In this document: positions 2,664 to 62,266 of the stretch, piece after piece
Position numbering within the stretch: the stretch's first letter is position 1
Layout: every line of letters starts with the position of its first letter
Assembly: GCA_016223105.1 (NCBI GenBank)
Contig: JACRPR010000072.1
Span: 7,982-71,981, forward strand
Origin: Chloroflexota bacterium
GTDB taxonomy: Bacteria > Chloroflexota > Anaerolineae > UBA4142
Length of the DNA: 64,000 nucleotides
Direction of reading: 5' to 3'
The notes under the pieces: generated by a model
Seen by the model: the letters and a program-made list of their open reading frames with translations, nothing else
The model's database searches: none
Told to the model about the DNA's origin: nothing
Made by a program: the position numbers and the translations under genes

Positions 2664-3344
2664 ATGAAATTTTCTCTTAACTTTGATTCCGACGTTCAAG
2701 TTCTTTTGCCGGATGGAAGCAAACGTTCGCTCATGTCCTTTCTGATTCCGAACGCGCTGTTGATGTTTGCCGCGCTCGTGTTGATGGTTTCGATGATGTT
2801 GCCGTACTGGAGTATGTCGCTCAAAGCACCGCAATACCCCAAAGGGCTCAAGGTCAACGTCTACGTCAATCATCTCGAAGGCGATGTGCGCGAGATTGAT
2901 TCGCTCAATCATTATTTGGGTATGCCGCCGCTTGATGAAGGCGGACGCTTTGAACGCTCGATCTCCATCGTCGCGATCGCGACCCTGGGTTTACTTTTGC
3001 TCGCCGGTGTGTTTGTGCATAATCAATTCGCGGCTCTGCTCGCCTTGCCCGCGCTCGGCTACCCCTTGATTTTTCTCGCGGACTTGTGGTACATTCTGTA
3101 CCAGTACGGGCACAGCATTGATCCCAAGTCTGCGCTCGGCGGCGCGATCAAACCATTCACGCCGCCGGTTTTTGGCGAAGGCAAAATCGGTCAGTTCGGC
3201 ACATTTGCCGCCCCTGAAATCGGTTTATACCTCGCGATTTTTTCCGCGCTGATCGTCCTCGCCGGCTTGTGGTTTCATCGCGCCGCGTACAAACCTCTTG
3301 TGGATGCGCGCAAACGCGTTCACGCTAGCAAGGCAACTGCATGA
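2664..3344 (+). CDS. Integral membrane protein in the nosB position (NosB-like)
   Basis: 226 aa, about 4 predicted TM helices with a periplasmic loop. Sits directly downstream of nosZ. Its stop overlaps the nosD start (ATGA at 3341-3344). The assignment rests on gene position in clade II nos clusters, not on a recognised motif. Confidence 0.45.
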   Translation: MKFSLNFDSDVQVLLPDGSKRSLMSFLIPNALLMFAALVLMVSMMLPYWSMSLKAPQYPKGLKVNVYVNHLEGDVREIDSLNHYLGMPPLDEGGRFERSISIVAIATLGLLLLAGVFVHNQFAALLALPALGYPLIFLADLWYILYQYGHSIDPKSALGGAIKPFTPPVFGEGKIGQFGTFAAPEIGLYLAIFSALIVLAGLWFHRAAYKPLVDARKRVHASKATA

Positions 3345-5650
3345 AATTGCGAATCGCGATCCTGGTTTTTAGCGCGCTCGCGTTGATCTCGATCAGCCGC
3401 GCGCACGCGCAAACCGCGAACCTCTCGCACGCGCCCGCGCTCGTCGTCTCGCCGACCGGTCCCTTCACCACGATTCAATCTGCGCTCGATGCCGCGCGCC
3501 CGGGCGATCACATTCGCGTCGAGCGCGGCGTGTACGCCGGTCCGATTATCGTCACCAAATCAGTTACGCTCGAAGGCGAGAATTTTCCGGTGATTGACAA
3601 CGGCGGCGATGGCACGGTCGTTACGCTCGACGCACCCGGCGCGATTTTGCGCGGCTTTGAATTGCGCGGCAGTGGCGTCGAACCGGATCGCGATCACTCC
3701 GGCATCGCAGTCAACGCGTCGCGCGTGATCGTCGAAAACAATCGCTTGCGCGAAGTATTGTTCGGAATTTTTGTCGCGAAGGCGAGTGATGTAATCGTGC
3801 GCGGGAACGATATTTCAAGCAAATCCGAGTACGACACCGGACGCCAGGGCGACGCGATTCGCTTGTGGTACAGCCCGCGCGCCGTCGTCGAAAATAATTA
3901 CGTGCATCACGCGCGCGATCTGATCGCGTGGTACGCGTCCGATGTGATCATTCGCAATAATCGCGTCGAGCATAGCCGCTACGGCGTGCATCTGATGTAC
4001 TGCGACCATGCGGTGATCGAACACAATCGCATCTTCGATAATTCGGTCGGCATTTACACAATGTACTCGAACGATATTCTTTTGCGCGAAAATTTTATTC
4101 GCGGCACGCGCGGACCGAGCGGTTACGCGCTCGGCTTCAAAGACGCGGACAATGTGCGCGCGACGAACAATGTGCTCGTGGACAATCGCGGCGGATTTTT
4201 TCTCGACAACACGCCGGTTACGCCGCAAGGCGAAGGATTGTTTCGCGACAACATTCTCGCGTTCAACGATGTCGGCGCGATTTTGATGCCGGCGGTGCGC
4301 GGCGCGAATTTTGAACACAACACCTTTTGGGAAAATGTCGAGCAGGTCGCGATTCAAGGAAGCGGCAAACTTGTCGGCAATCACTGGAACGAAAATTTTT
4401 GGAGCGATTATGCGGGCTACGACGCGAACGGTGACGGGCAAGGCGACCTGGCTTATCGGTCGGATCGTTTCTTTGAAGGAATGGCGGATCGCATCCCGAC
4501 ATTGCGCGCGCTGATTTACAGTCCGGTCGCGCAAGCGATTGAATTTGCCGGCTCCGCGTTCCCGATTGTGAAACCACAACCGAAAATGAGCGATCCAAAA
4601 CCGGCGATGCAAGCCGCGCCGATTCCTGGTTTTGCCTTGCCGACGCGCGATGGCGCGGGCGCGATGACCGGCGCGGCAATCGCGTTGTTATTGTTCGGCA
4701 TTGTGTCCGGCGCGTTTTCTGTCATTGCGAGCAAAGCGAAGCAATCCCCAACCGAGACCCGAAGGGTTTTCGGAAACCCTTCGGGTCTGTCCGCGTCCGT
4801 GCGCGTGGAAAATTTTTCCAAGCAGTACGGCAAGGTGCGCGCGATTGAAAACGTTTCGTTCGACGCGCGACCGGGCGAAGCATTGGCATTGTGGGGCGCA
4901 AACGGCGCGGGCAAAACAACTTTGCTCAAAGCAATCCTGGGATTGATTGATTATCGCGGCAAAATTCTGGTCGCCGATTTCGACGCGGCGCGCGCGGGAA
5001 AACAAGCGCGCGCGAACATCGGTTACGTGCCACAAGAAGCGACGTTCTACGATCTCAACGTACAAGCAACGCTCGAATTTTACGCGCGCCTCAAAAAAGC
5101 GGATCCCGCGCGCGTCCCGGTTTTGCTCGAACGCGTCGGACTCGCGGAACATGCGCGCAAACCGGTGCCCGCGTTATCGGGTGGACTCAAGCAACGACTC
5201 GCGCTCGCGGTCGCGCTGTTGAGCGATCCGCCGATTTTACTGCTCGACGAGCCGACCGCGAATCTCGACACACGCGCGCGGCGCGATTATCTCGCGCTCT
5301 TGTCCGCGTTGCATCACGAAGGCAAGACGTTGATCTTTGCGTCGCATCGCATCGAAGAAGTCGAAACGCTCGCGGATCGCGTGTTGATGATCGAAGCCGC
5401 GCAACTCGCCGAGATCATAACGCCGGAAGAATTGCGCGCGCGCCTCGCGACCGAAATCGAAATGACATTGTGGGTTGACGACGCGCAACGCGTCGCCGCG
5501 CGCGATTGTCTCGCGAATGCCGGGTTCGATCCGCGCGTCAACGGGCGCGGCACGGTGATTGTGCGCGTGCGCGCGGAACAAAAAATGCGCGCGTTCGATC
5601 TGCTGAATGAGTGCGGGGTCACGATCAAGAATTTCGAGATCGAGAATTAG
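3341..5650 (+). CDS. nosD-nosF: NosD::NosF fusion: periplasmic beta-helix Cu-maturation protein, TM helix, then ABC ATPase
   Basis: A single 769-codon frame. Signal peptide MKLRIAILVFSALALISISRAHA and a NosD-like repetitive beta-helix body. TM segment MTGAAIALLLFGIVSGAFSVIA. NosF-like ATPase with Walker A GANGAGKT, signature LSGGLKQR and Walker B LLLDEP. Confidence 0.85.
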   Translation: MKLRIAILVFSALALISISRAHAQTANLSHAPALVVSPTGPFTTIQSALDAARPGDHIRVERGVYAGPIIVTKSVTLEGENFPVIDNGGDGTVVTLDAPGAILRGFELRGSGVEPDRDHSGIAVNASRVIVENNRLREVLFGIFVAKASDVIVRGNDISSKSEYDTGRQGDAIRLWYSPRAVVENNYVHHARDLIAWYASDVIIRNNRVEHSRYGVHLMYCDHAVIEHNRIFDNSVGIYTMYSNDILLRENFIRGTRGPSGYALGFKDADNVRATNNVLVDNRGGFFLDNTPVTPQGEGLFRDNILAFNDVGAILMPAVRGANFEHNTFWENVEQVAIQGSGKLVGNHWNENFWSDYAGYDANGDGQGDLAYRSDRFFEGMADRIPTLRALIYSPVAQAIEFAGSAFPIVKPQPKMSDPKPAMQAAPIPGFALPTRDGAGAMTGAAIALLLFGIVSGAFSVIASKAKQSPTETRRVFGNPSGLSASVRVENFSKQYGKVRAIENVSFDARPGEALALWGANGAGKTTLLKAILGLIDYRGKILVADFDAARAGKQARANIGYVPQEATFYDLNVQATLEFYARLKKADPARVPVLLERVGLAEHARKPVPALSGGLKQRLALAVALLSDPPILLLDEPTANLDTRARRDYLALLSALHHEGKTLIFASHRIEEVETLADRVLMIEAAQLAEIITPEELRARLATEIEMTLWVDDAQRVAARDCLANAGFDPRVNGRGTVIVRVRAEQKMRAFDLLNECGVTIKNFEIEN
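4721..4749 (+). repeat. Family C half-element (GTCATTGCGAGCAAAGCGAAGCAATCCCC) inside the nosD::nosF linker
   Basis: Same motif as the left arm of the 79-bp element at 19355-19433. Translated here as VIASKAKQSP. Confidence 0.7.
4755..4788. repeat. Palindrome family P copy (AGACCCGAAGGGTTT-tcgg-AAACCCTTCGGGTCT), in frame in the nosD::nosF linker
   Basis: 15-bp perfect arms with a 4-nt loop. Translated as ETRRVFGNPSGL. Confidence 0.85.
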
Positions 5651-11088: not shown

Positions 11089-11104
11089 TTTGATCTCCTT
11101 GGAA

Positions 11105-11180
11105 TTTAGATGTTGGAAATTGGAGGTTAGAAGTTGGAACGCGCAATCCAACTTCCAACTTCTAACATCCAACATCCAAT
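11105..11180. repeat. Word-repeat hairpin (GGAAGTT/GGATGTT words) downstream of metK
   Basis: GATGTTGGAAATTGGAGGTTAGAAGTTGGA-acgcgca-ATCCAACTTCCAACTTCTAACATCCAACATC. Confidence 0.75.
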
Positions 11181-12406: not shown

Positions 12407-12467
12407 GATTTCAAATTTCAAATTTCAGATTGATGAATCTGAAATCTGCAATCTGAAATCTGAAATT
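12407..12467. repeat. Word-repeat hairpin (GATTTCA/AATCTGA words) between ahcY and metK
   Basis: GATTTCAAATTTCAAATTTCAGATT-gatga-ATCTGAAATCTGCAATCTGAAATCTGAAAT. Confidence 0.8.
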
Positions 12468-17293: not shown

Positions 17294-17307
17294 CAATCTC
17301 TCCGAGC

Positions 17308-17535
17308 AAAAAAAAATCTCTCCGCGCAAGAGAGAGAACGTCAAAACACGCGTCTCATCTCCCAAGCCAAAGCACAGCGGCTTGCCGGAATTGGCACCGA
17401 TTTAGTTGGATAGTTGATTAGTTGGATAGTTGGTTAGTTGAATGTCAACTATCCAACTATGAAACTATATAACTATTGCACTACCGGTTGCCGAGGTTTC
17501 ACAGGGCCGATCCCTCCACCTCTCTGGATGAGTGT
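17308..17535 (-). promoter_or_regulatory. SAM-I (S-box) riboswitch with an intrinsic terminator, 5' of mtnA
   Basis: Minus-strand RNA: CUCAUCCAGAGAGGUGGAGGGAUCGGCCCUGUGAAACCUCGGCAACC-[~95-nt P3]-GGUGCCAAUUCCGGCAAGC...GGGAGAUGAG. This is followed by UCUCUC-uugcgcg-GAGAGA and U9. Confidence 0.88.
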
Positions 17536-17559
17536 CCAGTGGTATTTGATTGCGGAGAG

Positions 17560-17588
17560 TTTATAGCACAAGCGAAATGTTTTGTCAA
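17560..17588 (-). promoter_or_regulatory. Sigma-70-like promoter for the riboswitch-mtnA unit
   Basis: Minus strand TTGACA (17583-17588), 17-nt spacer, TATAAA (17560-17565). Confidence 0.5.
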
Positions 17589-19903
17589 TTTGAAATTTGA
17601 ATCGTGGTGAGCGTGATGTGATCGTCATTGTTCACCGGCAAACGCGCGCCGCCATTCGCGCGATACACGCCGACAAAAATTTTATACGCGCCGGGTGAAA
17701 GATCGCGCGGGATAATCAACGCGTACTCGTCCGCGACAATTTCGCCCGCGTCCCACAATGAAGTTGGATACGCGCCGCTCTGCGGCTGATCATCTTTTTG
17801 CGCGATGATTTTGCCGGTCGCGTCAACGAGATGCATGAACACGGTGTACTCTTGATCTATCGCGCCGCGCGCTTGCCAAAATAATTTCACGCGCAATGAT
17901 TCGCCATCGCGCGCGACCGAATGTCCGACAAGCGCGAGTTGATCCGCGAATTCATAGCGCGCCGGATTTTCGATTTGCACACGCGCTTGCCCAGCGATTT
18001 TGAAGCGCGCGAGCGTCGGCGTGATCGCGTTCCTGCGCGGATCGCGCGCGACCAGGTTTTCGAGCGGCACGCGGCGATAGAGCGTTACGTCAATCCGTCC
18101 GCCGCCCGGTCCGCGCGCGTCGCGCGATAACGGCACGCGATATTCGTCCGCGATAATTTCGCCGACCTGCCACAATCGCGTCGGATACAAACCGCGACCG
18201 GGGAACGCATCCCAGCGTCCGATCACATCACCACGCGCGTCGAGCAAGCGAAGCCCCACCGAAAAATCTTCCGCGATGCGTTCACGCGCGCGCCAATAAA
18301 TCGTGATCGGCAATTCGCCACCGGGCGCAACCGATTTTTGCGCGAGCGCGTAACCGATCAATTCGATCTGATCGTCGAAAATAATTTGCGTCGGATTTGG
18401 CACGCGCGCTTCATCGGAAAAACGCGCGGGCAAAGTGTACGTGGGCGCGATGAGCGTGAAAGGGGCGAGCGCGGCAAAAGTTAAAAGTAAAAAGGTAAAA
18501 ATAAAAAGTAATCCGTAATGCGTGATGCGTAAAATCTGAAATCTGAAATGTGAAATCTGAAATCCGCTCAGCCCGTAGACAAACAAAACTGCCACCGCGC
18601 TGATTGCCGGAAAAATCAGACGACCTTGCGATGCCATCGTGAGCCACGTCCAACGCACCAGCGAGAGATTGATCAGAATGAACCACAGCGCGGGCAACGC
18701 GATCAAACCGGGCAACGCGCGGCGAAAAATTCCGATCACCAAACCAATCAACGCGATCAGCGTGAACGCATCGAGAAGTGTGTACACAATTTCCGGCGCG
18801 ATGATGTTGACGCCGCCGAAATTGCCCCAAAACGAAATGCGAAATCCTTGCAGTTCGCCGAGCAAACTCGCGAACGAAACCGGCGTCGCGCGCCCACCAG
18901 CAATCGCGACCCAAACATTGAACGCTAGCGGATCGTCGTACAGCATCCAGTTGCGCGCGTACCACCAGAACGCGAGCGCGACGACGAGCGCGGCGCAAAC
19001 AAAACTGCCCTTGATAATTTCGAGTGGGTGAGCGGGTGAGTGGGTGAGTGGGAGAATTGCTCCCCCTCTCCCTCTCTTCCCCTCTCCCACTCGGTTTCGC
19101 CATAATAGATACGCGAACACAATCGCCGCGACACCGAGCAAACCCAGGTTACTAATTTTCGTGAGCGCGCCGAGACCCAGCACGATCCCAAGAATGACAA
19201 ACCGTTGCATCGTCGCACCACGCGTAACAAGTCGCGTCATCAGCAACAGCGCGAGCGTCGCGAGCATCGTCGCGAGGTTGTCATTGTTCACCGACGCGCT
19301 GATGAAAATAAACATCGGATTGCACGCGACCAGCGCGGCGGCGAATGCGGGAATGTCATTGCGAGCGAAGCGAAGCAATCCCCACCGCGCGGTGGAGATT
19401 GCTTCGTCGCCAAGGTCGCTCCTCGCAATGACAATTTCGCGCGCGAGCGCGTAGGTCAGCGCGACGGTGAGCGCGGAAAATATAATCGAGAGGAACCGGA
19501 TGAGGTGAACCGCGAGCGCGGTATTATGCCACGGAAAACTTTCCGCGTTCGTGTGGACGATCAAATTCTTGTTGCCAAAAACCAGGGGGATGCCAATTTT
19601 CGCATGCGGGTTGAGCCACACGCGCTCCGGCAAATCGCGCGCGTCAATCCAAAATGTCGCGAGCGCGCTGATCGCATAATACAGCGGTGGCTGTCCGCCC
19701 TCTTGCTCCCACAACGTTTTCACATTCGGGTCTTGGATCGGCAATCCATTCCCGGTCGCGAGATGTTGGATGAACGGATAATGCCAAATCTCATCGCCCG
19801 CTTCAAAAATCGGCGTGAGGATCGAGTACGTGATCGCAAGCGCGAGGAACGCGACCAGGATCAAAATCAGCGCGCGATTATTTGCCCACATAGATCGTTT
19901 CAA
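17585..19903 (-). CDS. GT-C fold membrane glycosyltransferase (GT39/ArnT/PMT-like), paralog 1, with two C-terminal beta-sandwich repeats
   Basis: 772 aa, more than 10 TM helices, first-loop EAGDEIWHYP acidic motif. The C-terminus carries two ~130-aa repeats (YWRA...DFSV / FWQA...EYTVFMHLVD...). Contains several in-frame repeat-derived segments. Confidence 0.7.
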   Translation of the reverse strand: MKRSMWANNRALILILVAFLALAITYSILTPIFEAGDEIWHYPFIQHLATGNGLPIQDPNVKTLWEQEGGQPPLYYAISALATFWIDARDLPERVWLNPHAKIGIPLVFGNKNLIVHTNAESFPWHNTALAVHLIRFLSIIFSALTVALTYALAREIVIARSDLGDEAISTARWGLLRFARNDIPAFAAALVACNPMFIFISASVNNDNLATMLATLALLLMTRLVTRGATMQRFVILGIVLGLGALTKISNLGLLGVAAIVFAYLLWRNRVGEGKRGRGGAILPLTHSPAHPLEIIKGSFVCAALVVALAFWWYARNWMLYDDPLAFNVWVAIAGGRATPVSFASLLGELQGFRISFWGNFGGVNIIAPEIVYTLLDAFTLIALIGLVIGIFRRALPGLIALPALWFILINLSLVRWTWLTMASQGRLIFPAISAVAVLFVYGLSGFQISHFRFQILRITHYGLLFIFTFLLLTFAALAPFTLIAPTYTLPARFSDEARVPNPTQIIFDDQIELIGYALAQKSVAPGGELPITIYWRARERIAEDFSVGLRLLDARGDVIGRWDAFPGRGLYPTRLWQVGEIIADEYRVPLSRDARGPGGGRIDVTLYRRVPLENLVARDPRRNAITPTLARFKIAGQARVQIENPARYEFADQLALVGHSVARDGESLRVKLFWQARGAIDQEYTVFMHLVDATGKIIAQKDDQPQSGAYPTSLWDAGEIVADEYALIIPRDLSPGAYKIFVGVYRANGGARLPVNNDDHITLTTIQISN
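18481..18565. repeat. Word-repeat segment (AAAAGTA, GATGCGT and AATCTGA words) inside GT-C paralog 1
   Basis: TTAAAAGTAAAAAGGTAAAAATAAAAAGTAATCCGTAATGCGTGATGCGTAAAATCTGAAATCTGAAATGTGAAATCTGAAATCC, translated as FQISHFRFQILRITHYGLLFIFTFLLLT. Confidence 0.7.
19022..19093. repeat. Word-repeat hairpin (GGGTGAG / CCCTCTC) inside GT-C paralog 1
   Basis: GAGTGGGTGAGCGGGTGAGTGGGTGAGTGGGAGAATTGCTCCCCCTCTCCCTCTCTTCCCCTCTCCCACTC, translated as GEGKRGRGGAILPLTHSPAHPL. Confidence 0.7.
19355..19433. repeat. Family C 79-bp hairpin element inside GT-C paralog 1
   Basis: GTCATTGCGAGCGAAGCGAAGCAATCCCCACCGCGCGGTGGAGATTGCTTCGTCGCCAAGGTCGCTCCTCGCAATGAC, translated as ...SDLGDEAISTARWGLLRFARNDI. Confidence 0.85.
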
Positions 19904-21674
19904 TTGTCACCGCGTCGCCAAACGACTGACCATTGGCGTCAACCATGGGCAAACGTTCCCCCGTTGCGCGATCATAAAAACCAACGCGGATCGCATAATT
20001 CCCCGGCGGCGTGTTCGCGTCAATCGGCAACACCGCGCCGTGCTTCCATTGGTCGCTCGCGCGCAAGCTACGCGTCGCCATTTGCGCGTCCGCGCCGGCG
20101 ATTTGATTACCGGCGGCATCAACGAGGTGGACAAAAATCGTATAGTCCCGATCGGTGTTTTCCAAACTCTGGAGATAAAAAATCGCCGCGAGATATTCGC
20201 CGGGTTGCACGCGCGCGCTTGCCAGATCGAAACGCGCCAATTGAATCGCGGCATTGAAATTTACCGGGAGCGGCGGCGCGGCGCGCGCATCGAACGTCGG
20301 CGCGACCGGGATTTCAATCGGACGCTCTTGTTCGTCGAGATAAATAATTAGCGGATGCGGATGCGCGCGCAAATCGGGACTGACATGCGATTGCACACTT
20401 CCGACCGCGATCGTTTTGCCGTACCGCCCCAGAAACATTCCTTCGAGACTGTCAATGTACGTGTTGATGAAATAGATGTACGTGCCGGGCGGGAACGTGG
20501 GATGGCGTTGGCGAATCGCGCGAAAGACCGCGCGCTCGTCGAGCGACATGGACGCGTATAGCGCGGCGGCTTCGTCAATTCGCAATCCATTGCCGATCAA
20601 AAAAAGCGCGACGAGCAACCCGATGCTCCACACCGCAACGCGCCGCCGATTTTGCGCGAGCCACACCACGAGCATCGCCGCGGCAATTGCGAACGCGAGC
20701 GCGGGCGCATACAAATAGCGCGATTGCGGTTTGGGAAACGGGATCACCGGGAGCAAGGTAACCAACGCGACCAATCCCAGGAATACCAGCGCGCGATTTT
20801 TTTTGCGCCACGCGCTCCATCCCGCGAACGCATAAATGCCGAGCGCGAGAATTTGATCCGCGACCGGGTTAATGCTCCACGGCACAACCAGTTCCGTCAA
20901 GTATTTGATCAAATTGGGCGCGAGGTGACTGCCCGCGCTATAACCGACCTGGCGCGTGCTAACGCCGTAGGTAATCGAGCGCAAGTCGAACGCGATCAAC
21001 GTCAGCCCGGCGAAACCGAACAGCGCGTAGCGCCGGAATAAATCGAACACGCGGAACGGTCGGCGCAACAAAATGATCTCGATGCCAAGCAGAACTGCCG
21101 GCAGAACAATGCTCGTCTCTTTGGTCATCAACGCAAGACAATAAAACAACAGGGCGCGCAAATAATCGCGCGCGCGCGCGCGTTCGAGATACGCGATCCA
21201 AAACCAGGTCGCGGCGAGCGCGAACGCGGTCGCCTCGTTTTGCGGCTCGATGGGCCACATCGCGACCCAACTGATTGTCGGCAGAGTCACAAAAAATAAC
21301 GCGGACAATAACGCGAGCCACGGATGGTGGGACAGCCGGCGCACAAGCGCGAACAACAACAAGCCGTTCAGCAAATGCAGTAACATCCAAACAACGTGAA
21401 AGCCAAACGGATCCGCGCCGAACAAGGTGTATTCGGCTAACCACATCACTCCAAACATCGGACGATACCAAATGAATTGGACGCGCGGATCGAAAAAGAA
21501 ACGCAGATACTCGCCGAGATCGAGTTTCACCAACAGCGTGATGAACGACCAATCGTCCCACAAAAAACCAATCCGCAAGCCGGGCGCGAAAAAAATCGCG
21601 ACGACCGCGCTGATCAGTAAAACGCATAACGCGGTGGAAAATTTTTCAATGGCTTTGATTTTTGAACTGGTCAT
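19878..21674 (-). CDS. GT-C fold membrane glycosyltransferase (PMT/TMTC-like), paralog 2
   Basis: ATG 21674. First-loop GFLWDDWSF motif. Polytopic N-terminal domain plus a C-terminal domain (FYLQSLENTDRDYTIFVHLVDAAGNQIAGAD...). Confidence 0.65.
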   Translation of the reverse strand: MTSSKIKAIEKFSTALCVLLISAVVAIFFAPGLRIGFLWDDWSFITLLVKLDLGEYLRFFFDPRVQFIWYRPMFGVMWLAEYTLFGADPFGFHVVWMLLHLLNGLLLFALVRRLSHHPWLALLSALFFVTLPTISWVAMWPIEPQNEATAFALAATWFWIAYLERARARDYLRALLFYCLALMTKETSIVLPAVLLGIEIILLRRPFRVFDLFRRYALFGFAGLTLIAFDLRSITYGVSTRQVGYSAGSHLAPNLIKYLTELVVPWSINPVADQILALGIYAFAGWSAWRKKNRALVFLGLVALVTLLPVIPFPKPQSRYLYAPALAFAIAAAMLVVWLAQNRRRVAVWSIGLLVALFLIGNGLRIDEAAALYASMSLDERAVFRAIRQRHPTFPPGTYIYFINTYIDSLEGMFLGRYGKTIAVGSVQSHVSPDLRAHPHPLIIYLDEQERPIEIPVAPTFDARAAPPLPVNFNAAIQLARFDLASARVQPGEYLAAIFYLQSLENTDRDYTIFVHLVDAAGNQIAGADAQMATRSLRASDQWKHGAVLPIDANTPPGNYAIRVGFYDRATGERLPMVDANGQSFGDAVTIETIYVGK

Positions 21675-33779: not shown

Positions 33780-33814
33780 AAAAGCACAATCAATGATCGC
33801 GATCGGTTTAGGTT

Positions 33815-33855
33815 TCACGCATCACGCATTACGTTTTACGCATTACGTTTTACGC
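33815..33855 (-). repeat. ACGTTTT/GATGCGT composite element abutting the GT2 stop codon
   Basis: TCACGCATCACGCATTACGTTTTACGCATTACGTTTTACGC. The gene stop (33850-33852) lies inside it. Confidence 0.7.
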
Positions 33856-34803
33856 TTCCTCATCGCGCGGTTTCGGCGGGGCTTCACTCACGATGTAAAG
33901 CGGACGATTTTTCACCTCGTCGTAAATCCGTCCCAGGTATTCGCCGATGATGCCGAGGAAAATTAATTGCACGCCGCCGAGAAACAGAATCGCGATGATC
34001 GAAGTCGCTTCGCCATAAAACGCATTGTTGCCGGAAAGCCGCAGAGCGATGACGACCGGAATGGTAAGGAGCGCGATGCCGGAAATCCAAAAGCCAATCG
34101 TCGTCGCGAGTTGAAGCGGGATGTACGAAAAGCCGGTGATCGCGTCGGTCGCGAATTTGAGCATTTTGCGAAACGGATATTGCGTCGTGCCGGCAAAACG
34201 TTCCTGGCGCACGTACTGAATCCCGGTTTGTTTGAATCCAACCCACACCGACAAGCCGCGCATAAAGCGATGATGCTCGCGCAATTTTCGCATCGCCAAA
34301 ACAACCTTGCGATCAATCAAGCGAAAATCGCCGGTGTCCGGCGGAATATCAATCGAAGAAAGTTTGCGAATCAGCCGATAAAAAATCGAAGCGGTGAAAA
34401 GTTTGAACCAGGTTTCGCCTTCGCGCTTGGCGCGTTGCGCGTACACCAACTCGAATCCGGTTTTCCATTTCGCGATCATTTCTAAAATCACTTCGGGCGG
34501 GTCTTGCAAATCGGAATCTATGATCGCGACGGCATCGCCTTCCGCGTAATCAATCCCGGCGGTGATCGCGATCTGGTGCGAAAAGTTGCGCGAGAAGACG
34601 ACGCACTTGACGCGCGGATCGTACGCGTGCAGTTCGCGCCCAATCGCCGGCGAACGATCGCGACTGCCGTCAAAAACCAGGACGAGTTCGCACGCGCCGT
34701 CAAGTTGATCCATCACCGCGCGCGTGCGGCGATAAAATTCCGGGAGCGTGGCTTCCTCATTAAAGACGGGCGCGACAATGGAGTAACGAGGTCGGTTTGG
34801 CAT
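33850..34803 (-). CDS. GT2 polyprenol-phosphate glycosyltransferase (Ppm1/GtrB/ArnC-like)
   Basis: [16 protein letters not shown] and [10 protein letters not shown] (DxD) motifs. Two C-terminal TM helices. Confidence 0.8.
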
Positions 34804-34810: not shown

Positions 34811-34957
34811 TTGGAAATTGGAAATTAGAAATTGGAAGTTGGAAGACGTGATACGTGATGCGTGATAATCTCACGCATCACGCATCACGTTTTACGTTTT
34901 ACGTTTTACGTTTTACGTTTTACGTTTTACGTTTTACGCTTTACGCTTTACGTTTTA
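34811..34957 (-). repeat. Composite intercistronic element: (ACGTTTT)x10 tandem, a GATGCGT-word hairpin and TTGGAAA words
   Basis: Ten 7-nt units at 34887-34956. Hairpin ACGTGATACGTGATGCGTGA-taatc-TCACGCATCACGCATCACGT at 34846-34890. TTGGAAATTGGAAATTAGAAATTGGAAGTTGGAAG at 34811-34845. The substrate-binding-protein stop at 34955 lies within it. Confidence 0.85.
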
Positions 34958-36889
34958 CTTGATCGTCCAACTTTCCGCGTAGAACGGAATGTATTTGCCT
35001 TCGTTCACATCATAGTACGTGAACGGCGGATAGAGCGCATTGCTCAAGACCGCGCCGCTTGCCATGATGTTGTCCGTCGAATAGAGATTGTAATTCGCTT
35101 TCGGTGGTTGCACGTACGGGTACGAGGTCTTGAATTCTTTCGCGCGATTCGTCGCGCTCGGTTTGAGTTGACCGCTCAAGAGCTGGCGCGCGACCGGCGA
35201 ATTGTTCTGATTGTTTTTGTAAATCTTGTCGTCCACCGGCAACCAACCGGTCACCCGCGTCTTGGTGTCAATCGGATCGGTGAGGTAGCGTTCGAACATC
35301 ATCAAGACGGGCAAACTGTCGTTGAAGAACGATGCGACATCGGCGATGTAGGGTTTTTGTTTTTCCGCGTCAAACCCTTCCGCCATCTTGTCCACCCATT
35401 CCTTGATGTTGATCTCTTTGCCATCCGCGGTTTTTTGCTTGAACGGCAAGTTGATGCCGCGTTCGCCTTCGTTGCCTTCGGGATTGTTTTTCCAACCCGC
35501 GCTCACCACACCCGGGCGCAAGTTGTAATCGAAGGAAACGTACGGGTGAAAGTACGTAAAGCGGAAACCAATGTCCATCGAAATTTGATACTTGCCGGCT
35601 TTGTGGAGGTTGGTGCGTTCGGACGATTGGTACGGCTTGACCGTGATCTTGATGCCGAACTTGGTTAATTGTTGCGCGACGTTTTCGGACGACGCGAGGT
35701 ATTCGGTGAAATCGGCGGGCACGCTCAATTCAAATTCCAGTTTCTTGCCCTTGTCATCCACCCAAATGCCATCCGCGCCTTTTTTGAAATTGAGCCCAGT
35801 CAACAACGCTTCGGCTTTTTTCACATCCGCATCGTACGTGTTGAGTTTGGCAAGTTGCGCGGCGGAAAGCCAGGTCGGCACTGCGGCATCGGTAAAGCCG
35901 GCTTCGTACTTGACCGGGCGGCACGCATCGCCGAACGCAACCTTGCAATTTTCAACGCGATCAATCGCGTACGCGAATGCCTGGCGCACTTCTTTTTTGT
36001 TCAGCGGATAGACATCGTTGTTAAAGTACATCCCGGGTCCGTTCGTCCCAGGTCCGCCGAGCACGACCATGTGATTGCCGACCGCGCGAATCGCTTGCAA
36101 ATTCGCGGGGCTGTACGCGTTCGAGGAATAGTCCATATCGTTCGAGAGATACAATGGCATATCCTGAACGGTGTCGCCCCAGTACACGGTAACTTTGTCG
36201 AAATCAATCTTGTCCGCGTTGAACCCGGACGCGTTCTTGACCATCGTGAATTGCGCTTCGGTAACTTGTTTCGGATCAATGTTGAACGGACCGTAGACGA
36301 TCGCGCTCGGCGGGCGGAACGCGTTCATTTCGTCGAGCGTTTTGGTTACGTCCGCGCTTTTGCGGTCAGTGTTATTTTTGCGAAAACCGGCGGCGGCGTC
36401 CATCCATTTGCCGTACTGCGCGTACGGACGCGTGACGGTCGCGCGCACAATCGTGTCGAGAATCGCGGGACCGGGGGTTTTGATCGTGAACTCGACGGTC
36501 GCGTCATCTTTCGCGACGACATCGTTCAGCGCGTTCCAGGTCGAGCTGGTTTGCATCCACAAAATGTTGTACGTGCCGACGACATCTTTCGAGCTGAACG
36601 CGGAGCCGTCGCTCCATTTCATGCCCTTGCGAAGATTGATCGTGATCGTTGTAACGCCGGGCGCGGCGGGTTTAGTTGGCTCTGCCGGTTTCGTGGCAAC
36701 CGGCGCGGTCGTCGCCGCGGGCTTGGTGGGTTCCGGTGCTTTGGTTGCCGGCACCGCGGTCGGCGGCACCGCCGCCGTTGGTTTCGGCGCGTCGGTCGGT
36801 TTAGGCGCGGGCGTCGGCGTTGGCGCGGCGCACGCGACGAGCGCGACAAGCGCGATCAGCAATGTGAGCGCGAGCAAAATCTTTTTCAT
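34955..36889 (-). CDS. ABC transporter substrate-binding lipoprotein, family 5 (peptide/nickel/oligosaccharide type)
   Basis: Lipobox LVAC followed by a ~60-aa Pro/Thr/Ala tether. Family-5 body (INLRKGMKWSDGSAFSSKDVV...). Confidence 0.8.
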   Translation of the reverse strand: MKKILLALTLLIALVALVACAAPTPTPAPKPTDAPKPTAAVPPTAVPATKAPEPTKPAATTAPVATKPAEPTKPAAPGVTTITINLRKGMKWSDGSAFSSKDVVGTYNILWMQTSSTWNALNDVVAKDDATVEFTIKTPGPAILDTIVRATVTRPYAQYGKWMDAAAGFRKNNTDRKSADVTKTLDEMNAFRPPSAIVYGPFNIDPKQVTEAQFTMVKNASGFNADKIDFDKVTVYWGDTVQDMPLYLSNDMDYSSNAYSPANLQAIRAVGNHMVVLGGPGTNGPGMYFNNDVYPLNKKEVRQAFAYAIDRVENCKVAFGDACRPVKYEAGFTDAAVPTWLSAAQLAKLNTYDADVKKAEALLTGLNFKKGADGIWVDDKGKKLEFELSVPADFTEYLASSENVAQQLTKFGIKITVKPYQSSERTNLHKAGKYQISMDIGFRFTYFHPYVSFDYNLRPGVVSAGWKNNPEGNEGERGINLPFKQKTADGKEINIKEWVDKMAEGFDAEKQKPYIADVASFFNDSLPVLMMFERYLTDPIDTKTRVTGWLPVDDKIYKNNQNNSPVARQLLSGQLKPSATNRAKEFKTSYPYVQPPKANYNLYSTDNIMASGAVLSNALYPPFTYYDVNEGKYIPFYAESWTIK

Positions 36890-38902: not shown

Positions 38903-39880
38903 TCATGTCGTACGCCAATTCCAACACGCGACGCGATGCCCGCTCGCAATCTCTTCCAGTTCCGGCTCATCGCGTTTGCACCGCGCGTCCGCGCGCGGAC
39001 AGCGCGGATGAAATTTACACCCGCTTGGCAATTCGATCAAGTCCGGCGGCGAACCTGGGATCGAAGTCAAATCTTCTTTCGCGCCTTGAAGCGTCGGCAC
39101 CGCGTTGATCAAGCCAATCGTGTACGGATGCGCGGGCGTTTTGAACGTCGTCGTAACATCTGCAAATTCGACGATTTTGCCGGCGTACACCGTCGCGACA
39201 CGATCGGCGAGTTCGGCGGCGAGCGACAAATCGTGCGAAATAAAAATCAACGAGAAATCGAGTTTGCCGCGCAATTCTTTCAGCACGTCCATAATATTGC
39301 GTTGCGTCAGAATGTCGAGCGCGGTCGTCGGCTCATCGAGAATCAAGAGTTGCGGTTCGAGCAGTAAGCCGAGCGCGATCAGCACGCGTTGCCGCATGCC
39401 GCCGGACAATTCGTGCGGAAACGATTTCCACACGCGTTCCGGATCGAGCCGGACGAGCGTGAGCAAATGTTCCGCGCGTTCTTTCAGCGCGCGCCCTTGC
39501 AAATAGTTATGCGCGCGCGCCGTGTCGCCGAATTGATCCGCGATGCGTAAAACCGGGTTGAGCGAGTTGAGCGCGGATTGAAACACCATCGCGCACTCTT
39601 TCCAACGAAACTCGCGGAGGGCTTTGCCCTTCAGCGTGAGCGCGTCAATCGTTTTATTGTCGCGATGATACAGCGCATTGCCCTGCGTGATCTTCGCGGT
39701 ACTCGGAAGCAATTGCACCACGCCCAAGCCGAGCGTCGTTTTGCCGGAACCGCTTTCGCCGATCAGCGCGAGCGCATCGCCACGCGCAACGTCGAAGGAC
39801 ACGTTGCGAATCGCGCGCACCTTGCCGCGCCGCGCGGCGTATTCGATGGATAAATTTTGAACAGATAAAGTTGGAGGCAT
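38903..39880 (-). CDS. ABC transporter ATP-binding protein (OppD/DppD-like)
   Basis: ATG 39880; the upstream extension is repeat-encoded. Walker A GESGSGKTT, signature LSGGMRQR, Walker B LILDEPTT. Confidence 0.85.
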   Translation of the reverse strand: MPPTLSVQNLSIEYAARRGKVRAIRNVSFDVARGDALALIGESGSGKTTLGLGVVQLLPSTAKITQGNALYHRDNKTIDALTLKGKALREFRWKECAMVFQSALNSLNPVLRIADQFGDTARAHNYLQGRALKERAEHLLTLVRLDPERVWKSFPHELSGGMRQRVLIALGLLLEPQLLILDEPTTALDILTQRNIMDVLKELRGKLDFSLIFISHDLSLAAELADRVATVYAGKIVEFADVTTTFKTPAHPYTIGLINAVPTLQGAKEDLTSIPGSPPDLIELPSGCKFHPRCPRADARCKRDEPELEEIASGHRVACWNWRTT

Positions 39881-39968
39881 AGTTGGATGGTTGGATAGTT
39901 GGGTAGTTGGGTAGTTGAATAGTTGCGTGGTTGGAAGAATTATCCAACTATCCAACTATTCAACTATC
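39880..39968. repeat. Word-repeat hairpin (GGATAGTT/GGGTAGTT words)
   Basis: ATAGTTGGATGGTTGGATAGTTGGGTAGTTGGGTAGTTGAATAGTTG ... TTATCCAACTATCCAACTATTCAACTATC. Confidence 0.75.
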
Positions 39969-39971
39969 TAA

Positions 39972-40085
39972 TTTGACAATGTCAGATTAGCCACAGAATC
40001 ACACAGAAACACACAGAATAAGAAAAAATTTCTGTGAAATTCTGTGTGTTTCTGTGGCAGAAAAAGGAAATCTGACATTGCCAAA
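39972..40085. repeat. Nested two-level hairpin (outer GACAATGTCAGATT, inner CACAGAA words)
   Basis: TTTGACAATGTCAGATT-[AGCCACAGAATCACACAGAAACACACAGAA ... TTCTGTGAAATTCTGTGTGTTTCTGTGGC]-AATCTGACATTGCCAAA. Confidence 0.8.
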
Positions 40086-42549: not shown

Positions 42550-42625
42550 TATGGGACGCGGATGAGCGCGGAGGAACGCGGATAAAAAAGAATAATCCGC
42601 GTTCGTCCGCGTTTGTCCGCGTCCA
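42550..42625. repeat. Family R ~76-bp hairpin element (copy 1 of 3)
   Basis: TATGGGACGCGGATGAGCGCGGAGGAACGCGGATAAAAAAGAATAATCCGCGTTCGTCCGCGTTTGTCCGCGTCCA. Confidence 0.85.
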
Positions 42626-42627
42626 AT

Positions 42628-46353: not shown

Positions 46354-46430
46354 TATGGGACGTAGATGAACGCAGATGAACGCAGATTTTTTCTTCTTAT
46401 CCGCGTTCGTCCGCGTTTGTCCGCGTCCCA
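46354..46430. repeat. Family R hairpin element (copy 2 of 3)
   Basis: TATGGGACGTAGATGAACGCAGATGAACGCAGATTTTTTCTTCTTATCCGCGTTCGTCCGCGTTTGTCCGCGTCCCA. Confidence 0.85.
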
Positions 46431-48074: not shown

Positions 48075-48102
48075 AATTGCCAATTACCAATTACCGATTG
48101 CC
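48075..48102 (+). repeat. CAATTAC-type word run supplying the stop codon of anmK::murQ
   Basis: GAATTGCCAATTACCAATTACCGATTGCC. On the minus strand it reads ...GGC AAT CGG TAA (GNR*). Confidence 0.7.
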
Positions 48103-61210: not shown

Positions 61211-61285
61211 TAATGCGTGATGCGTGATGCGTGATGCGTGAACCTCACGAATCACGCATCACGTTTTACGTTTTACGTTTTACGA
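61211..61285 (-). repeat. ACGTTTT/GATGCGT composite element abutting the E1-beta stop codon
   Basis: TAATGCGTGATGCGTGATGCGTGATGCGTGA-acc-TCACGAATCACGCATCACG followed by (TTTTACG)x3. The stop at 61280-61282 lies inside it. Confidence 0.85.
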
Positions 61286-62266
61286 TTTCCCGCAGAGCAT
61301 ACGCGCCATTTCAAAAACTGTTTGCTCCGTCGGCACCGTTACATCTTCGAGCGTGGGCGAAAATGGCACCGGCACATTCAGTGCACCCATTCGTTTGACC
61401 GGCGCGTCGAGATAGTAAAACGCGCCTTCCGCGATGACCGACGCGATTTCGGCGGTGACACCGTACTGCTCGTACCCTTCGTCAATCACAATCGCGCGCG
61501 AAGTTTTTTTCGCGGACTCGATACAAGTTTTTTTATCGAGCGGCAACGTCGTGCGCGGATCGATCACCTCCGCGCCGATACCGATTTGCGCGAGCATCTC
61601 CGCCGCGCCGAGCGCGACCTGCACCATCGAACTTGTCGCGACGAGCGTGATGTCACTGCCCGCGCGTTTCACATCGGCAACGCCGAACGGAATCGTGTAA
61701 TCATCCGTCGGTACAACACCTTTCATTTTGAACATCATCTTGTCTTCAAAAAAAACGACCGGGTTGTTATCGCGAATCGCGGTTTTCAGCAAACCCTTGG
61801 CATCGTACGGCGTTGATGGAATCGCGACTTTCAACCCAGGAATGTGGCTGACCCACGCGTGCAAACTTTGCGAGTGTTGCGCCGCCGAGCGTCGCGTCGC
61901 GCCCATCGTCGTGCGAAACACCATCGGCACATTCAGTTTGCCGCCGGACATGTAATGCACTTTGGCGGCTTGGTTCGCGATTTGATCCATCGCCAGTGTG
62001 AGAAAATCGCCGAACATTAAATCCACAACCGGGCGCATCCCGGTCATCGCCGCGCCAACGCCGATGCCGGAAAAACCAGGTTCAGAAATCGGCGTGTCAA
62101 TCACGCGCGCTGTGCCAAACTCTTCGACCAAGCCGGATAAAACTTTGAACGGCGTTCCCGCTTCGGCGACATCTTCGCCGAAGATGAACACGCGCGCATC
62201 GCGCCGCATCTCCTCCGCGAGCGCTTCGCGGATCGCTTCGGCAAACGTGATTTCGCGATCAGACAT
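61280..62266 (-). CDS. 2-oxoacid dehydrogenase E1 component, beta subunit
   Basis: 328 aa. VFIFGEDV...GTARVIDTPISEPGFSGIGVGAAMTGMRPVV transketolase-like pyrimidine-binding domain. Confidence 0.9.
   Translation of the reverse strand: MSDREITFAEAIREALAEEMRRDARVFIFGEDVAEAGTPFKVLSGLVEEFGTARVIDTPISEPGFSGIGVGAAMTGMRPVVDLMFGDFLTLAMDQIANQAAKVHYMSGGKLNVPMVFRTTMGATRRSAAQHSQSLHAWVSHIPGLKVAIPSTPYDAKGLLKTAIRDNNPVVFFEDKMMFKMKGVVPTDDYTIPFGVADVKRAGSDITLVATSSMVQVALGAAEMLAQIGIGAEVIDPRTTLPLDKKTCIESAKKTSRAIVIDEGYEQYGVTAEIASVIAEGAFYYLDAPVKRMGALNVPVPFSPTLEDVTVPTEQTVFEMARMLCGKS

Follow-up and report, generated by a model that had tools for sequence, protein, structure and literature searches.

How can the gene for a polytopic membrane enzyme take up repetitive DNA at several points and still be read as one open frame? 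The question is raised by a glycosyltransferase gene in a 64,000-nucleotide stretch of DNA from a Chloroflexi MAG (the whole stretch analysed, hereafter the window). A first-pass annotation had proposed that repeat-derived segments, at least three of them, lie inside its 772 codons without breaking the frame, and in the ORF listing the frame is indeed open throughout.

17585..19903, minus strand: gene for a GT-C fold glycosyltransferase (PMT_2/GT39-like), an unbroken 772-aa ORF with a TTG start
19790..19804, minus strand: acidic motif E34-A35-G36-D37-E38 in the first extracytoplasmic loop, located from the codons and an alignment of 112 sequences

The ORF is the last in a row of four tandem paralogues. 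Its 772-aa product has an exact NCBI match, 'MAG: glycosyltransferase family 39 protein [Chloroflexi bacterium]' (P0001), and a protein search returned 2105 homologues. Pfam PMT_2 (PF13231) matches with 41.7 bits, above the gathering cut-off of 26.1, and an NCBIfam search gave no specific family. The AlphaFold model (pLDDT 86.6, pTM 0.85) has a confident GT-C fold, in which 11 long helices correspond to the 11 predicted transmembrane (TM) helices and the C-terminal domain is a predicted extracytoplasmic beta-sandwich. Foldseek matched the model to Pmt4 (9i5k_A; TM-score 0.54, normalised to target), to ArnT (5ezm; TM-score 0.45) and also to STT3 (8agb_A) and AglB (3waj). Within the acidic motif, E34, A35, D37 and E38 occupy invariant columns in the 112 aligned sequences; from general knowledge of GT-C enzymes, we take the first extracytoplasmic loop that carries them to be the catalytic loop. 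All residues invariant across the 112 homologues are retained in the window protein, and the GC3 of the ORF (0.66) follows a coding-like pattern. On the best reading of sequence and model, the gene product is a predicted functional GT-C glycosyltransferase with putative sugar transfer from a polyprenyl-phosphate donor.

Three in-frame segments of this ORF are confirmed as repeat-derived.

19355..19432, minus strand: segment 1, a 78-nt two-tier palindromic element ('family C'), delimited by inverted repeats I3 and I4, folding and orthologue comparison
19021..19093, minus strand: segment 2, an inverted array of 8-nt words with arms at 19021-19054 and 19060-19093, from repeat and folding analysis
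18476..18564, minus strand: segment 3, three abutting tandem heptamer arrays (3a-3c), from repeat analysis
18532..18564, minus strand: segment 3a, a tandem heptamer array of AAATCTG x4.7 (coding strand TCAGATT x4.7)
18508..18532, minus strand: segment 3b, a heptamer array of GTAATGC x3.6 (coding strand TTACGCA/TCACGCA/TTACGGA; repeat families D2 and D10)
18476..18511, minus strand: segment 3c, a T-rich heptamer-periodic stretch of AAAAGTA x5.1 (coding strand TTACTTT x5.1, 83% matches)

Segment 1, previously described as a 79-bp hairpin at 19355-19433, was located to within 1 nt, with GTCATTGCGAG beginning at 19355 and CTCGCAATGAC ending at 19432. These 11-nt terminal inverted repeats enclose an inner stem, GAAGCAATC.../...GATTGCTTC, whose long arm comes first on the coding strand; the flanks, TT...AA, only lengthen the palindrome. 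The RNA has a minimum free energy (MFE) of -57.7 kcal/mol (z = -6.2), a stability that none of 200 shuffled sequences reached. The element is translated as aa 158-183, VIARSDLGDEAISTARWGLLRFARND, in the TM2-TM3 loop, with pLDDT of 57-64 in the AlphaFold model. When segment 1 is deleted in silico, the PMT_2 match widens from profile positions 51-132 to 24-132 and scores 51.3 bits versus 41.7 for the native protein. As a repeat family of the window, family C stands in part: there are 2 matches against 0 expected, but only segment 1 is a full copy, the other being a half copy at 4721-4746.

The GGGTGAG/CCCTCTC hairpin assigned earlier to 19022-19093 was recovered as the two arms of segment 2, which consist of GAGTGGGT x3.9 and CTCCCCCT x4.1. 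In the mRNA, the GGGAGAG-type arm precedes the CTCACCC-type arm, with one mismatch per word, and the RNA folds with an MFE of -46.6 kcal/mol (z = -6.8). GGGTGAG was matched 3 times, where 0.02 matches would be expected. The segment 2 peptide, roughly aa 271-294 (GEGKRGRGGAILPLTHSPAHPL), lies in the TM6-TM7 loop, where pLDDT is 55-73 and AlphaFold models a loop at aa 277-292. The mRNA strand of the segment is open in all three frames. Perfecting the hairpin in silico produces an in-frame TGA, and the native arm has A for T in every word; a stop-codon filter on the repeats is visible here. Separately, neither of the hairpins of segments 1 and 2 is followed by a T-run, and an internal terminator was rejected on this ground.

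Segment 3 corresponds to a run of AATCTGA/GATGCGT/AAAAGTA words that had been placed at 18481-18565. Segment 3a translates as FQISHFRFQI (aa 448-457), the TM10-TM11 loop, and segment 3b as LRITHYG, the beginning of helix 458-488; the window contains the AATCTGA pattern 12 times, where 0.44 matches would be expected, and the words of segment 3b recur as intergenic arrays at 33808-33858, 34846-34958 and 61213-61288. Folding found no hairpin in segment 3 (z = -0.5), which is a one-armed tandem array. There is only one arm because the opposite (plus) orientation is closed in all three frames. Segment 3c encodes LLFIFTFLLLTF, aa 465-476. The earlier suggestion that a repeat contributes a TM helix thus needs qualifying: heptamer-periodic DNA does encode the N-terminal half of TM11 in this clade, by TTACTTT-type or TTTGTCA-type heptamers depending on the orthologue, but TM11 is present in the repeat-free homologues P0081-P0085 and is not a new helix. 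The peptides quoted for all three segments appear as such in the ORF translation. AATTTGA x2.1, found at the stop codon (17587-17601), was considered as a fourth insert and discarded, as the C-terminus aligns residue for residue with orthologues.

In the AlphaFold model, segments 1, 2 and 3 map to the loops after TM2, TM6 and TM10, and the only low-confidence parts of the membrane domain are these three segments and the first extracytoplasmic loop. Each segment follows an even-numbered TM helix and so should form a cytoplasmic loop, away from the catalytic loop; both helix counting and GT-C precedent suggest this cytoplasmic location, and the K/R density is consistent with a position inside. 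The acidic-motif loop and the repeat inserts are accordingly modelled, and predicted, to sit at opposite membrane faces.

Orthologue comparison shows gain, turnover and loss at all three sites. Between invariant anchors in the alignment of 112 homologues, the segment 1 region measures 25 residues in most sequences and 46 in the window protein, the segment 2 region 44 residues in distant homologues versus 64, and the segment 3 region 36 residues in the shortest homologues versus 47. The alignment was also inspected for ancestral conserved protein sequence in the segments, and none was found: the extra residues are dispersed or tandem repeats in the DNA. At site 1, the empty state is a 25-residue EIKNDKTLAA-type stretch, seen also in the DNA of the sister orthologue P0002, and the filled state spans 41-88 residues in about 25 close orthologues, with palindrome-family peptides. 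Filled and empty orthologues form sister pairs throughout the tree. The long arm of the element comes first in the window, P0049, P0011 and P0007, and the short arm in P0008 and P0012; the junctions vary between orthologues, one type being common to the window and the distant P0049. The peptides vary with orientation and exit frame (VIAS.AKQSP, VIARS..DEAIS, ...LAMT, ...ARND). P0011 contains two tandem 93-nt units and P0005 a nested hairpin, and no consistent direct repeat indicative of a target-site duplication was found across six filled sites. Given both orientations and the differing junctions, site 1 has received at least three separate insertions. A single ancient insertion followed by losses was rejected as the sole explanation, as orientation and junctions differ and empty sites keep the EIKNDKTLAA-type loop that filled ones have lost. 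Recombination between lineages could partly account for the patchy distribution on the tree. The window gene had been called an extreme example; this holds in a relative sense, as P0011 and P0014 have two tandem palindromes at site 1 and other orthologues nested inserts.

Sites 2 and 3 hold repeats in nearly all close orthologues, differing in family and length, and lack them in more distant homologues. The site 2 hairpin is built from GGGTGAG, GACGCGGC, GGGACGCGGAT, CCGGTCA or family C itself, and the site 3 heptamer arrays use different words with lengths of +0 to +62 aa. Since many orthologues with 60-80% identity have related arrays at these positions, segments 2 and 3 are old within the clade and were not acquired in the window genome. 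Site 2 adds only about +0 to +6 aa in P0046, P0066, P0055, P0031 and P0076, the copy in P0002 has decayed (-33.9 kcal/mol), and P0009, P0010 and P0039 retain short insert remnants. In the eight to ten orthologues whose DNA was examined, most hairpins remain strong, at -50 to -75 kcal/mol. At site 3, lineages whose proteins have diverged by 35-40% keep the heptamer periodicity, and ongoing homogenisation or selection is therefore needed.

Repeats of the same kinds pervade the rest of the window. Word arrays with a period of 7-10 nt number about 55 in the 64 kb, nearly all intergenic and mostly inverted pairs, and they and their like fill almost every intergenic gap; the words include AATCTGA, ACGTTTT, GTTGGAA, TAGTTGGA, GGGTGAG and others, with 8-, 9- and 10-nt words among them. 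Insertion at tolerant positions, as in the enzyme loops, recurs here: a SAM riboswitch in the window carries a word-array hairpin in its P3 loop, and the linkers of a NosD-ABC ATPase fusion and an AnmK-MurQ fusion are made of repeats.

Family C extends well beyond the window. A sequence scan found its motif in at least 120 DNA stretches from many phyla, with Bradyrhizobium, Pedobacter, Microcoleus, Patescibacteria, Chloroflexi, Planctomycetota, Sporomusa and many alphaproteobacteria as hosts among the matches listed. The consensus of the listed matches is CGTCATTGCGAG...GCAATCCAG...CTGGATTGC...CTCGCAATGACG, and the 11-nt ends are invariant in 47 aligned copies. The 120 loci listed comprise 73 two-arm elements, with a median length of 85 nt, and 79 arms without a partner; immediately before GTCATTGCGAG, C occurs 145 times, T 71 times, A 6 times and G once. 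Each arm has a 5-bp stem, ATTGC/GCAAT, around an interior of 12-25 nt, and the consensus has an AT start and a CCA(G) tail. Searches of published full text with the family C sequence and peptide returned unrelated primer matches only.

Heptamer arrays have counterparts elsewhere: cyanobacteria reportedly contain STRR families of tandem heptanucleotide repeats, said to go back to Mazel and co-workers in 1990. TAACTGA heptamer arrays occur in Beggiatoaceae, cyanobacteria and Bacteroidetes (PMC4679880). The window arrays resemble both in comprising several families of 7-nt words, in 3-10 tandem copies at many mostly intergenic and often mixed loci, with some orientations translatable and others stop-rich. 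They differ in phylum (Chloroflexi) and words, in forming mostly inverted hairpin pairs and using 8-, 9- and 10-nt words too, and in having one array well within a conserved ORF, where it continues into a TM helix.

For segment 1, several classes of palindromic element invite comparison. GTAG/CGTC-tagged REPs, their head-to-head dimers and intragenic REPs have been described by Di Nocera et al. 2013 (PMC3733652), whose text and text-form supplements do not contain the family C sequence. According to that study, intragenic REP dimers encode 20-30 aa, recB of two Xanthomonas species holds different REPs at about the same site, and Chloroflexi are reported only for GTAG repeats; CGTC REPs are defined by an 8-9 bp stem starting with A-T and T-A pairs, a 4-5 nt loop and a 3-nt tail near CCA. 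Like these, family C has an inner arm that starts with AT and continues to CCA(G), and a main organisation, in several phyla, of two inverted arms about 85 nt end to end or of single arms. Its consensus begins with CGTC in 65% of copies among the matches listed, and both arms of the window copy read TGTC. The arm stem is 5 bp rather than 8-9 bp, which places family C outside the stem definition. Bacterial MITEs such as intragenic ERIC, BOX and Correia elements also give in-frame fusions (PMC10969869), and segment 1 shares with them its small size, non-coding character, terminal inverted repeats, occurrence between and within genes and capacity to add peptides; unlike them, it showed no target-site duplication at the filled sites compared, and it is shorter than most. 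The best reading of segment 1 is a REP/MITE-like palindromic element.

A further close parallel is with Rickettsia palindromic elements (RPEs), described as inserted in frame in protein genes (Ogata et al. 2000, reviewed in PMC10969869). RPEs and the window segments are alike in being short dispersed palindromic repeats in functional ORFs that keep the frame, add a peptide and are absent from related orthologues, and in both the insert is expected where the protein fold tolerates it. RPEs are about 150 bp long and reside in reduced intracellular genomes, whereas segment 1 has about 80 nt and the window belongs to a free-living, Anaerolineae-like Chloroflexi MAG. Also unlike the RPE case, one gene here has three repeat classes, and in a set of more than 100 orthologues insertions have struck the same loops again and again, in either orientation. 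As the host phylum differs, we claim an RPE-like phenomenon and not membership of an RPE family.

We favour, with a probability of roughly three in four, the reading that neutral or selfish repeats colonise permissive loops, where in the course of time they are gained, decay and disappear, and that the resulting peptides are tolerated. The repeats would spread or expand as DNA, likely by transposition-like insertion for segment 1 and by slippage or concerted evolution for the word arrays of segments 2 and 3. In coding regions, copies would persist only if their length keeps the frame, they contain no in-frame stop and they fall in an insert-tolerant loop on the non-catalytic face. The survivors would be translated as disordered or helical-hairpin loop extensions, and the segment 3 repeats would additionally provide the first half of TM11. 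Across orthologues, elements at these three loops are acquired, exchanged, nested, duplicated, degraded and lost, and the sites thus act as hot spots; existing hairpins or A-rich loop codons may attract new insertions. It is the distribution of the element that suggests mobility for segment 1, and we infer that the inserts are neutral for enzyme function.

The wide occurrence of strong hairpins, especially at site 2 in nearly every close orthologue, could mean selection for structure rather than neutrality. Hairpins and arrays would then be selected cis-acting mRNA or DNA structures (pausing after TM helix pairs, stability or processing, internal regulation) and the peptide a by-product, which we consider unlikely. 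Folding with z of about -6 to -7 that remains strong in orthologues, a site 2 hairpin kept while its sequence differs, and the position of all three sites after even-numbered TM helices are what such selection would produce. Yet repeats of these classes also occupy almost all intergenic gaps, the riboswitch loop and both fusion linkers, and their presence throughout the window means that no gene-specific function is needed to explain them here. Moreover, several otherwise conserved orthologues lack inserts (site 1 is mostly empty, site 2 nearly so in five), others have decayed copies or remnants, and segment 3 does not fold. An Rfam search of 17300-20000 found no family, the hairpins giving only sub-threshold miRNA-precursor-like matches. 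A bolder version, to which we give an outside chance, is that the three loops are actively targeted landing pads with selected hairpins and arrays (for example, pacing translation after TM pairs), in a lineage that systematically uses intergenic repeats as raw material for protein and RNA.

Glycosyltransferases are classic phase-variable genes, and simple repeats switch surface-glycan genes of pathogens. The segment 3 heptamers might likewise form a slipped-strand switch, in which gain or loss of 7 nt toggles the frame: a 7-nt unit does not divide into whole codons, the ORF contains four near-identical units, and array length varies widely among orthologues. We regard this as quite improbable, however, as three perfect units and one variant are short for efficient slippage, every full-length orthologue seen is in frame, and the short homologues inspected (P0058, P0089, P0094 and P0118) are cut off by a contig edge or within the C-terminal domain rather than at the array. 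Nor is antigenic switching evidently needed in an environmental Chloroflexi MAG.

That the segments are assembly artefacts, or the gene a decaying pseudogene that is still open, has very little probability: hairpins and low-complexity repeats are difficult to assemble and the source is a MAG, but syntenic orthologues from independent assemblies (JGI, ENA, NCBI) have equivalent in-frame inserts at all three sites, the repeats specifically avoid stop codons, and a search for gene disruption saw none, with invariant residues kept, GC3 coding-like and the fold confident. It is scarcely credible that the segments are ordinary variable protein loops with a coincidental likeness to repeats, although length varies even in distant homologues without obvious repeats and T-rich Phe/Leu codons could mimic heptamer periodicity in TM11, since nucleotide matches lie far beyond chance (2 vs 0, 3 vs 0.02 and 12 vs 0.44 expected), palindromy reaches z < -6 in segments 1 and 2, and orthologues translate one and the same element in various orientations and exit frames, as expected of a DNA element and not of a conserved peptide; for segments 1, 2 and 3a-3b this is effectively refuted.

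Read-through of repeats into protein is already known, and the Chloroflexi glycosyltransferase is a clear new example, which carries what is known from Rickettsia palindromic elements over to free-living Chloroflexi and to an enzyme that spans the membrane many times. Family C itself is an 80-nt palindrome with invariant 11-nt ends, common to many bacterial phyla and not found in the literature searched. In practice, such inserts interrupt Pfam domain matches and make metagenomic protein catalogues look more diverse in sequence than they are. If the landing-pad reading were true, intergenic repeats would be raw material for loop extensions, half a TM helix, the fusion linkers and the riboswitch stem extension. 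On the favoured reading, of neutral or selfish repeats in permissive loops, the locus is a clean and well-sampled natural experiment on selfish or slippage repeats becoming protein: three loops of a single gene, repeats of several classes and a set of over 100 orthologues, in which the selective filter of stop codons, orientation and membrane face can be read directly in the sequence.

The 772-codon glycosyltransferase ORF is open throughout from its TTG start, as the first-pass annotation had claimed for a gene that holds three types of repeat, and a protein identical to its product has been deposited as 'MAG: glycosyltransferase family 39 protein [Chloroflexi bacterium]' (P0001). The peptide strings quoted for the three segments are all found in its translation. 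Of four PMT_2-like paralogues in tandem, this gene comes last; beyond it lie a SAM riboswitch and then an IF-2B/MtnA-like gene. Orthologous contigs retain this order, so the homologues compared here are true orthologues.

Glycosyltransferase ORF and its repeat-derived segments
17585-19903, minus strand: glycosyltransferase ORF, TTG start, 772 open codons
19355 (GTCATTGCGAG) to 19432 (CTCGCAATGAC), minus strand: segment 1, two-tier palindrome, inverted repeats I3 and I4
19021-19054 and 19060-19093, minus strand: segment 2, arms of inverted repeat I9
18532-18564, minus strand: segment 3a, heptamer array AAATCTG x4.7
18508-18532, minus strand: segment 3b, heptamer array GTAATGC x3.6
18476-18511, minus strand: segment 3c, heptamer array AAAAGTA x5.1

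Each segment has the repeat character originally described for it. The palindrome of segment 1, a copy of the element denoted family C, folds with -57.7 kcal/mol (z = -6.2; none of 200 dinucleotide-preserving shuffles was as good), and the family C arm matches twice in the window against 0.00 expected from shuffled sequence. The arms of segment 2 are arrays of about four 8-nt words apiece and form a GGGTGAG-type hairpin of -46.6 kcal/mol (z = -6.8); GGGTGAG pairs match three times against 0.02 expected. Segment 3 consists of three heptamer arrays placed end to end, for which folding indicated no hairpin (z = -0.5), and AATCTGA pairs match 12 times against 0.44 expected.

Arrays of 7-10-nt words account for about 55 Tandem Repeats Finder rows in the 64-kb window. 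Almost all are intergenic, mostly paired with an inverse array that completes a hairpin, and a limited vocabulary (TAGTTGGA, GTTGGAA, AATCTGA, ACGTTTT/ATGCGTG, CAGTAAA, CCAATTA, ACGCGGATGA) recurs at many loci. Deep intragenic copies are rare in the window: three loci belong to the glycosyltransferase gene and one lies at 48970-49003, with two further cases in doubt. Inverted pairs of tandem arrays of 7-, 8-, 9- or 10-nt words occupy almost every gap, for example those at 2576-2655, 11099-11179, 12408-12466, 34811-34958, 39879-40056 and 61213-61288, and the same vocabulary is present in orthologous contigs from other samples. Such intergenic pairs may possibly act as terminators or in mRNA stability.

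The family C palindrome is not of the same kind as the word arrays. A contig scan detected its motif in at least 120 DNA stretches, and hosts among the matches listed include Alpha-, Gamma- and Deltaproteobacteria, Bacteroidota, Cyanobacteria, Patescibacteria, Planctomycetota, Firmicutes and Chloroflexi. The 11-nt ends of (C/T)GTCATTGCGAG...CTCGCAATGAC(G/A) are invariant among aligned copies; among the matches listed, the consensus reads CGTCATTGCGAG...CGAAGCAATCCAG...CTGGATTGCTTCG...CTCGCAATGACG and the median length is 85 nt, with both arms present in 73 copies and another 79 arms standing alone. Examples from the loci numbered L008-L127 are L030:1622-1712 (Bradyrhizobium ganzhouense), L047:3700-3796 (Patescibacteria) and L038:6246-6337 (Pedobacter miscanthi). 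Single arms occur in Helicobacter rodentium and Sporomusa malonica, and a Chloroflexus MAG (L014) carries tandem arrays of single arms at a spacing of ~50 nt. Rfam contains no family that matches the element, and its sequence was not found in the literature searched by full text.

Alignment with 112 homologues of 49-81% identity, from which the residues between invariant anchors were extracted for each site, maps the extra residues to three loops. Site 1 (aa 150-195) comprises exactly 25-26 residues in most of the 112 homologues, an EIKNDKTLAA-type loop, as compared with 46 in the window and 41-88 in about 25 close orthologues; the segment is thus not ancestral conserved sequence. The additional residues in close orthologues are translations of family C (VIAS.AKQSP..., VIARS..DEAIS..GDCFAKTARND, ...LLAMT). 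In nine orthologue DNAs, filled sites are bounded by GTCATTGCGAG and CTCGCAATGAC, and empty sites are evident at the DNA level, for example GAAATCGGACTCGATGATAAATCGCTC in the sister P0002. The Pfam PMT_2 match of the native protein is above threshold and restricted to profile positions 51-132 (aa 184-269); on deletion of segment 1 in silico it grows to positions 24-132 (51.3 bits), the same extent as in the insert-free P0002 and P0017, and segment 1 therefore interrupts the Pfam domain. At site 2 (aa 255-318), the more remote homologues have 44 residues and close ones 55-81. The repeat type of the window (GEGERGRGGENHPLTHSPTHPL) recurs in several close orthologues, and others contain hairpins built from the words GACGCGGC, GGGACGCGGAT or CCGGTCA, or a family C palindrome. 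Site 3 (aa 436-482) measures 36 residues in P0081-P0085 and 40-98 in other homologues, with heptamer arrays in close orthologues whose words drift by lineage (TTTCAGA, ATTCAGA, ATTCAAA, AATTGCC, TCACGCA/TTACGTT, TTTGTCA). A hairpin of 10-nt words, GGGACGCGGATGA.../...TCCGCGTCCC, has three intergenic copies in the window (42551-42627, 46360-46426 and 62290-62366), and the same hairpin family fills site 2 in P0004, P0005, P0015, P0016, P0020 and P0027.

An AlphaFold model with the 112 homologues as input is confident (pLDDT 86.6, pTM 0.85) and has 11 long helices, after which the chain ends in a beta-rich domain. In Foldseek searches with this model, the membrane part resembles Pmt4, ArnT, STT3 and AglB, and the C-terminal part resembles tandem Ig-like sandwiches.

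Helices of the AlphaFold model
TM1: aa 10-29, then first extracytoplasmic loop, 30-126
TM2: aa 127-163, then segment 1
TM3: aa 184-202
TM4: aa 208-228
TM5: aa 232-246
TM6: aa 250-276, then segment 2, loop 277-292
TM7: aa 293-322
TM8: aa 371-393
TM9: aa 399-421
TM10: aa 427-447, then segment 3a, loop 448-457
TM11: aa 458-488, then beta domain

The first loop and the three segments are the low-confidence blocks of the model, and there are no others. The N-terminus is basic, and the first loop bears an acidic motif with E34, D37 and E38 invariant across the alignment; in solved GT-C enzymes, the loop with this motif is extracytoplasmic. The C-terminal domain lies outside. From these features the N-terminus is predicted to lie inside the cell, which would place the loops after even-numbered helices, and with them the three segments, in the cytoplasm; K/R densities agree with this assignment. 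The first-pass annotation further claimed that a repeat contributes a predicted TM helix. The heptamer-periodic stretch at 18476-18511 does encode the N-terminal half of TM11 (aa 465-476), and orthologues use TTACTTT-type or TTTGTCA-type heptamers for this half-helix (LLFIFTFLL versus LSFAHLSFVIFLL). However, TM11 is already present in the repeat-free P0081-P0085, indicating that no new helix arose from the repeat, which instead overwrote or lengthened one already in place.

The repeats show marks of selection against stop codons. When the 5' arm of segment 2 is made a perfect complement of the 3' arm, an in-frame TGA arises in the gene; the native arm has A instead of T in every word, which leaves the mRNA strand open in all three frames, with the other strand stopped in each. 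Avoidance of the would-be TGA explains the regular one mismatch per word in the fold. In the opposite orientation, segment 3 has stops in all three frames, which explains why the ORF holds just one arm of a normally inverted pair. Of the three frames in which translation can leave family C, one ends in TGA (SQ*), and the only exits seen among orthologues are ...ARND and ...LAMT.

In a neighbour-joining tree with the three insert sites masked, filled and empty states of site 1 alternate between sister taxa (window/P0002, P0005/P0003, P0004/P0006, P0008/P0031 and P0018/P0043). The element is asymmetric, with one long and one short arm; the long arm leads in the window, P0049, P0011 and P0007, and the short arm in P0008 and P0012. 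Junctions differ too: the element directly follows GAAAT[TC] in the window and P0049, with loss of the KTL codons; it sits four codons further on in P0007, P0008 and P0011, where KTL is kept; and in P0005 it lies upstream, in place of E156. P0011 and P0014 contain two 93-nt units in tandem. Since empty sites retain the ancestral loop that is altered in filled ones, repeated precise loss is unlikely, and we conclude that there were at least three, and probably more, independent insertions at this loop. Some spread by recombination is possible, given that the window and the distant P0049 have the same junction. Nested inserts occur in P0005 (L004:1472-1590; a CCCTCCCC...GGGGAGGG hairpin at the family C apex), P0012 (L129; an 'LRSAQDA'-type repeat in the long arm) and P0049 (L128), which suggests that existing hairpins are preferred as targets for further insertion.

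Taken together, the repeat-derived in-frame segments are real and their initial interpretation was essentially right. The best-supported reading, to which we assign a probability of about 0.75, is that nucleotide-level repeats colonise three permissive cytoplasmic loops, where selection for frame and against stops would filter them, and are gained and lost over time. Selection for mRNA or DNA structures, for example to pause translation after TM pairs, is improbable: the main point in its favour is that nearly all close orthologues have some strong hairpin at site 2 despite differences in sequence, but the same repeat classes occupy almost every intergenic gap, inserts are absent from some conserved orthologues, decayed copies exist and segment 3 does not fold. 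Less probable still is a phase-variation switch that operates by heptamer slippage, and an assembly artefact or pseudogene, or a coincidental likeness to repeats, is very unlikely.

Repeats also sit in a riboswitch and in two other ORFs of the window. The SAM (S-box) riboswitch at 17352-17534 (minus strand), upstream of the IF-2B/MtnA-like gene, scores 74.7 bits (gathering score 44.4) and spans 183 nt versus the 108-position model because a 77-nt TAGTTGGA/CAACTATC word-array hairpin is inserted in the P3 terminal loop (about 17403-17476); a genome repeat is thus tolerated in structured RNA, as repeats are in protein loops. In a single 769-aa ORF at 3341-5650 (plus strand), the linker VIASKAKQSPTETRRVFGNPSGLS (about 4720-4790) connects two parts: a NosD-family maturation protein (aa 45-424; TIGR04247 with 369 bits) and, after the linker, an ABC-transporter ATPase (aa ~484-720). 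The linker is encoded by a family C half copy (4721-4746) and the palindrome AGACCCGAAGGGTTTTCGGAAACCCTTCGGGTCTG (4755-4789, repeat family D7); it looks like an intergenic repeat that was read through, joining two genes. At 48091-50151 (minus strand), a 686-aa ORF combines the anhydro-N-acetylmuramic acid kinase AnmK (aa 1-381) with the MurNAc-6-phosphate etherase MurQ (aa 394-684), and a GTTGGAT heptamer array encodes the linker (48970-49003).

Rickettsia palindromic elements and intragenic REPs represent the same phenomenon (PMC10969869; PMC3733652). REP dimers encode 20-30 aa, and different REPs occupy the same recB site in two Xanthomonas species (PMC3733652). Family C resembles CGTC-tagged REP dimers in starting with AT, in its CCA tail, in being organised as dimers and in its range of hosts, and the tag is present in part of its copies; it is nevertheless not assigned to this group, as it fails their stem/loop definition and the window copy is TGTC-tagged. 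The word arrays are similar to cyanobacterial STRR repeats and to TAACTGA heptamer arrays (PMC4679880) but differ from both in host, words and inverted-pair architecture. The glycosyltransferase locus is hence an unusually rich example of a known phenomenon and no new kind of system. Four features merit follow-up: insertions recur in the same loops, segment 2 bears a signature of stop purging, the family C palindrome crosses phyla, and this genome puts repeats to wider use, as linkers in fusions and to extend the stem of a riboswitch.
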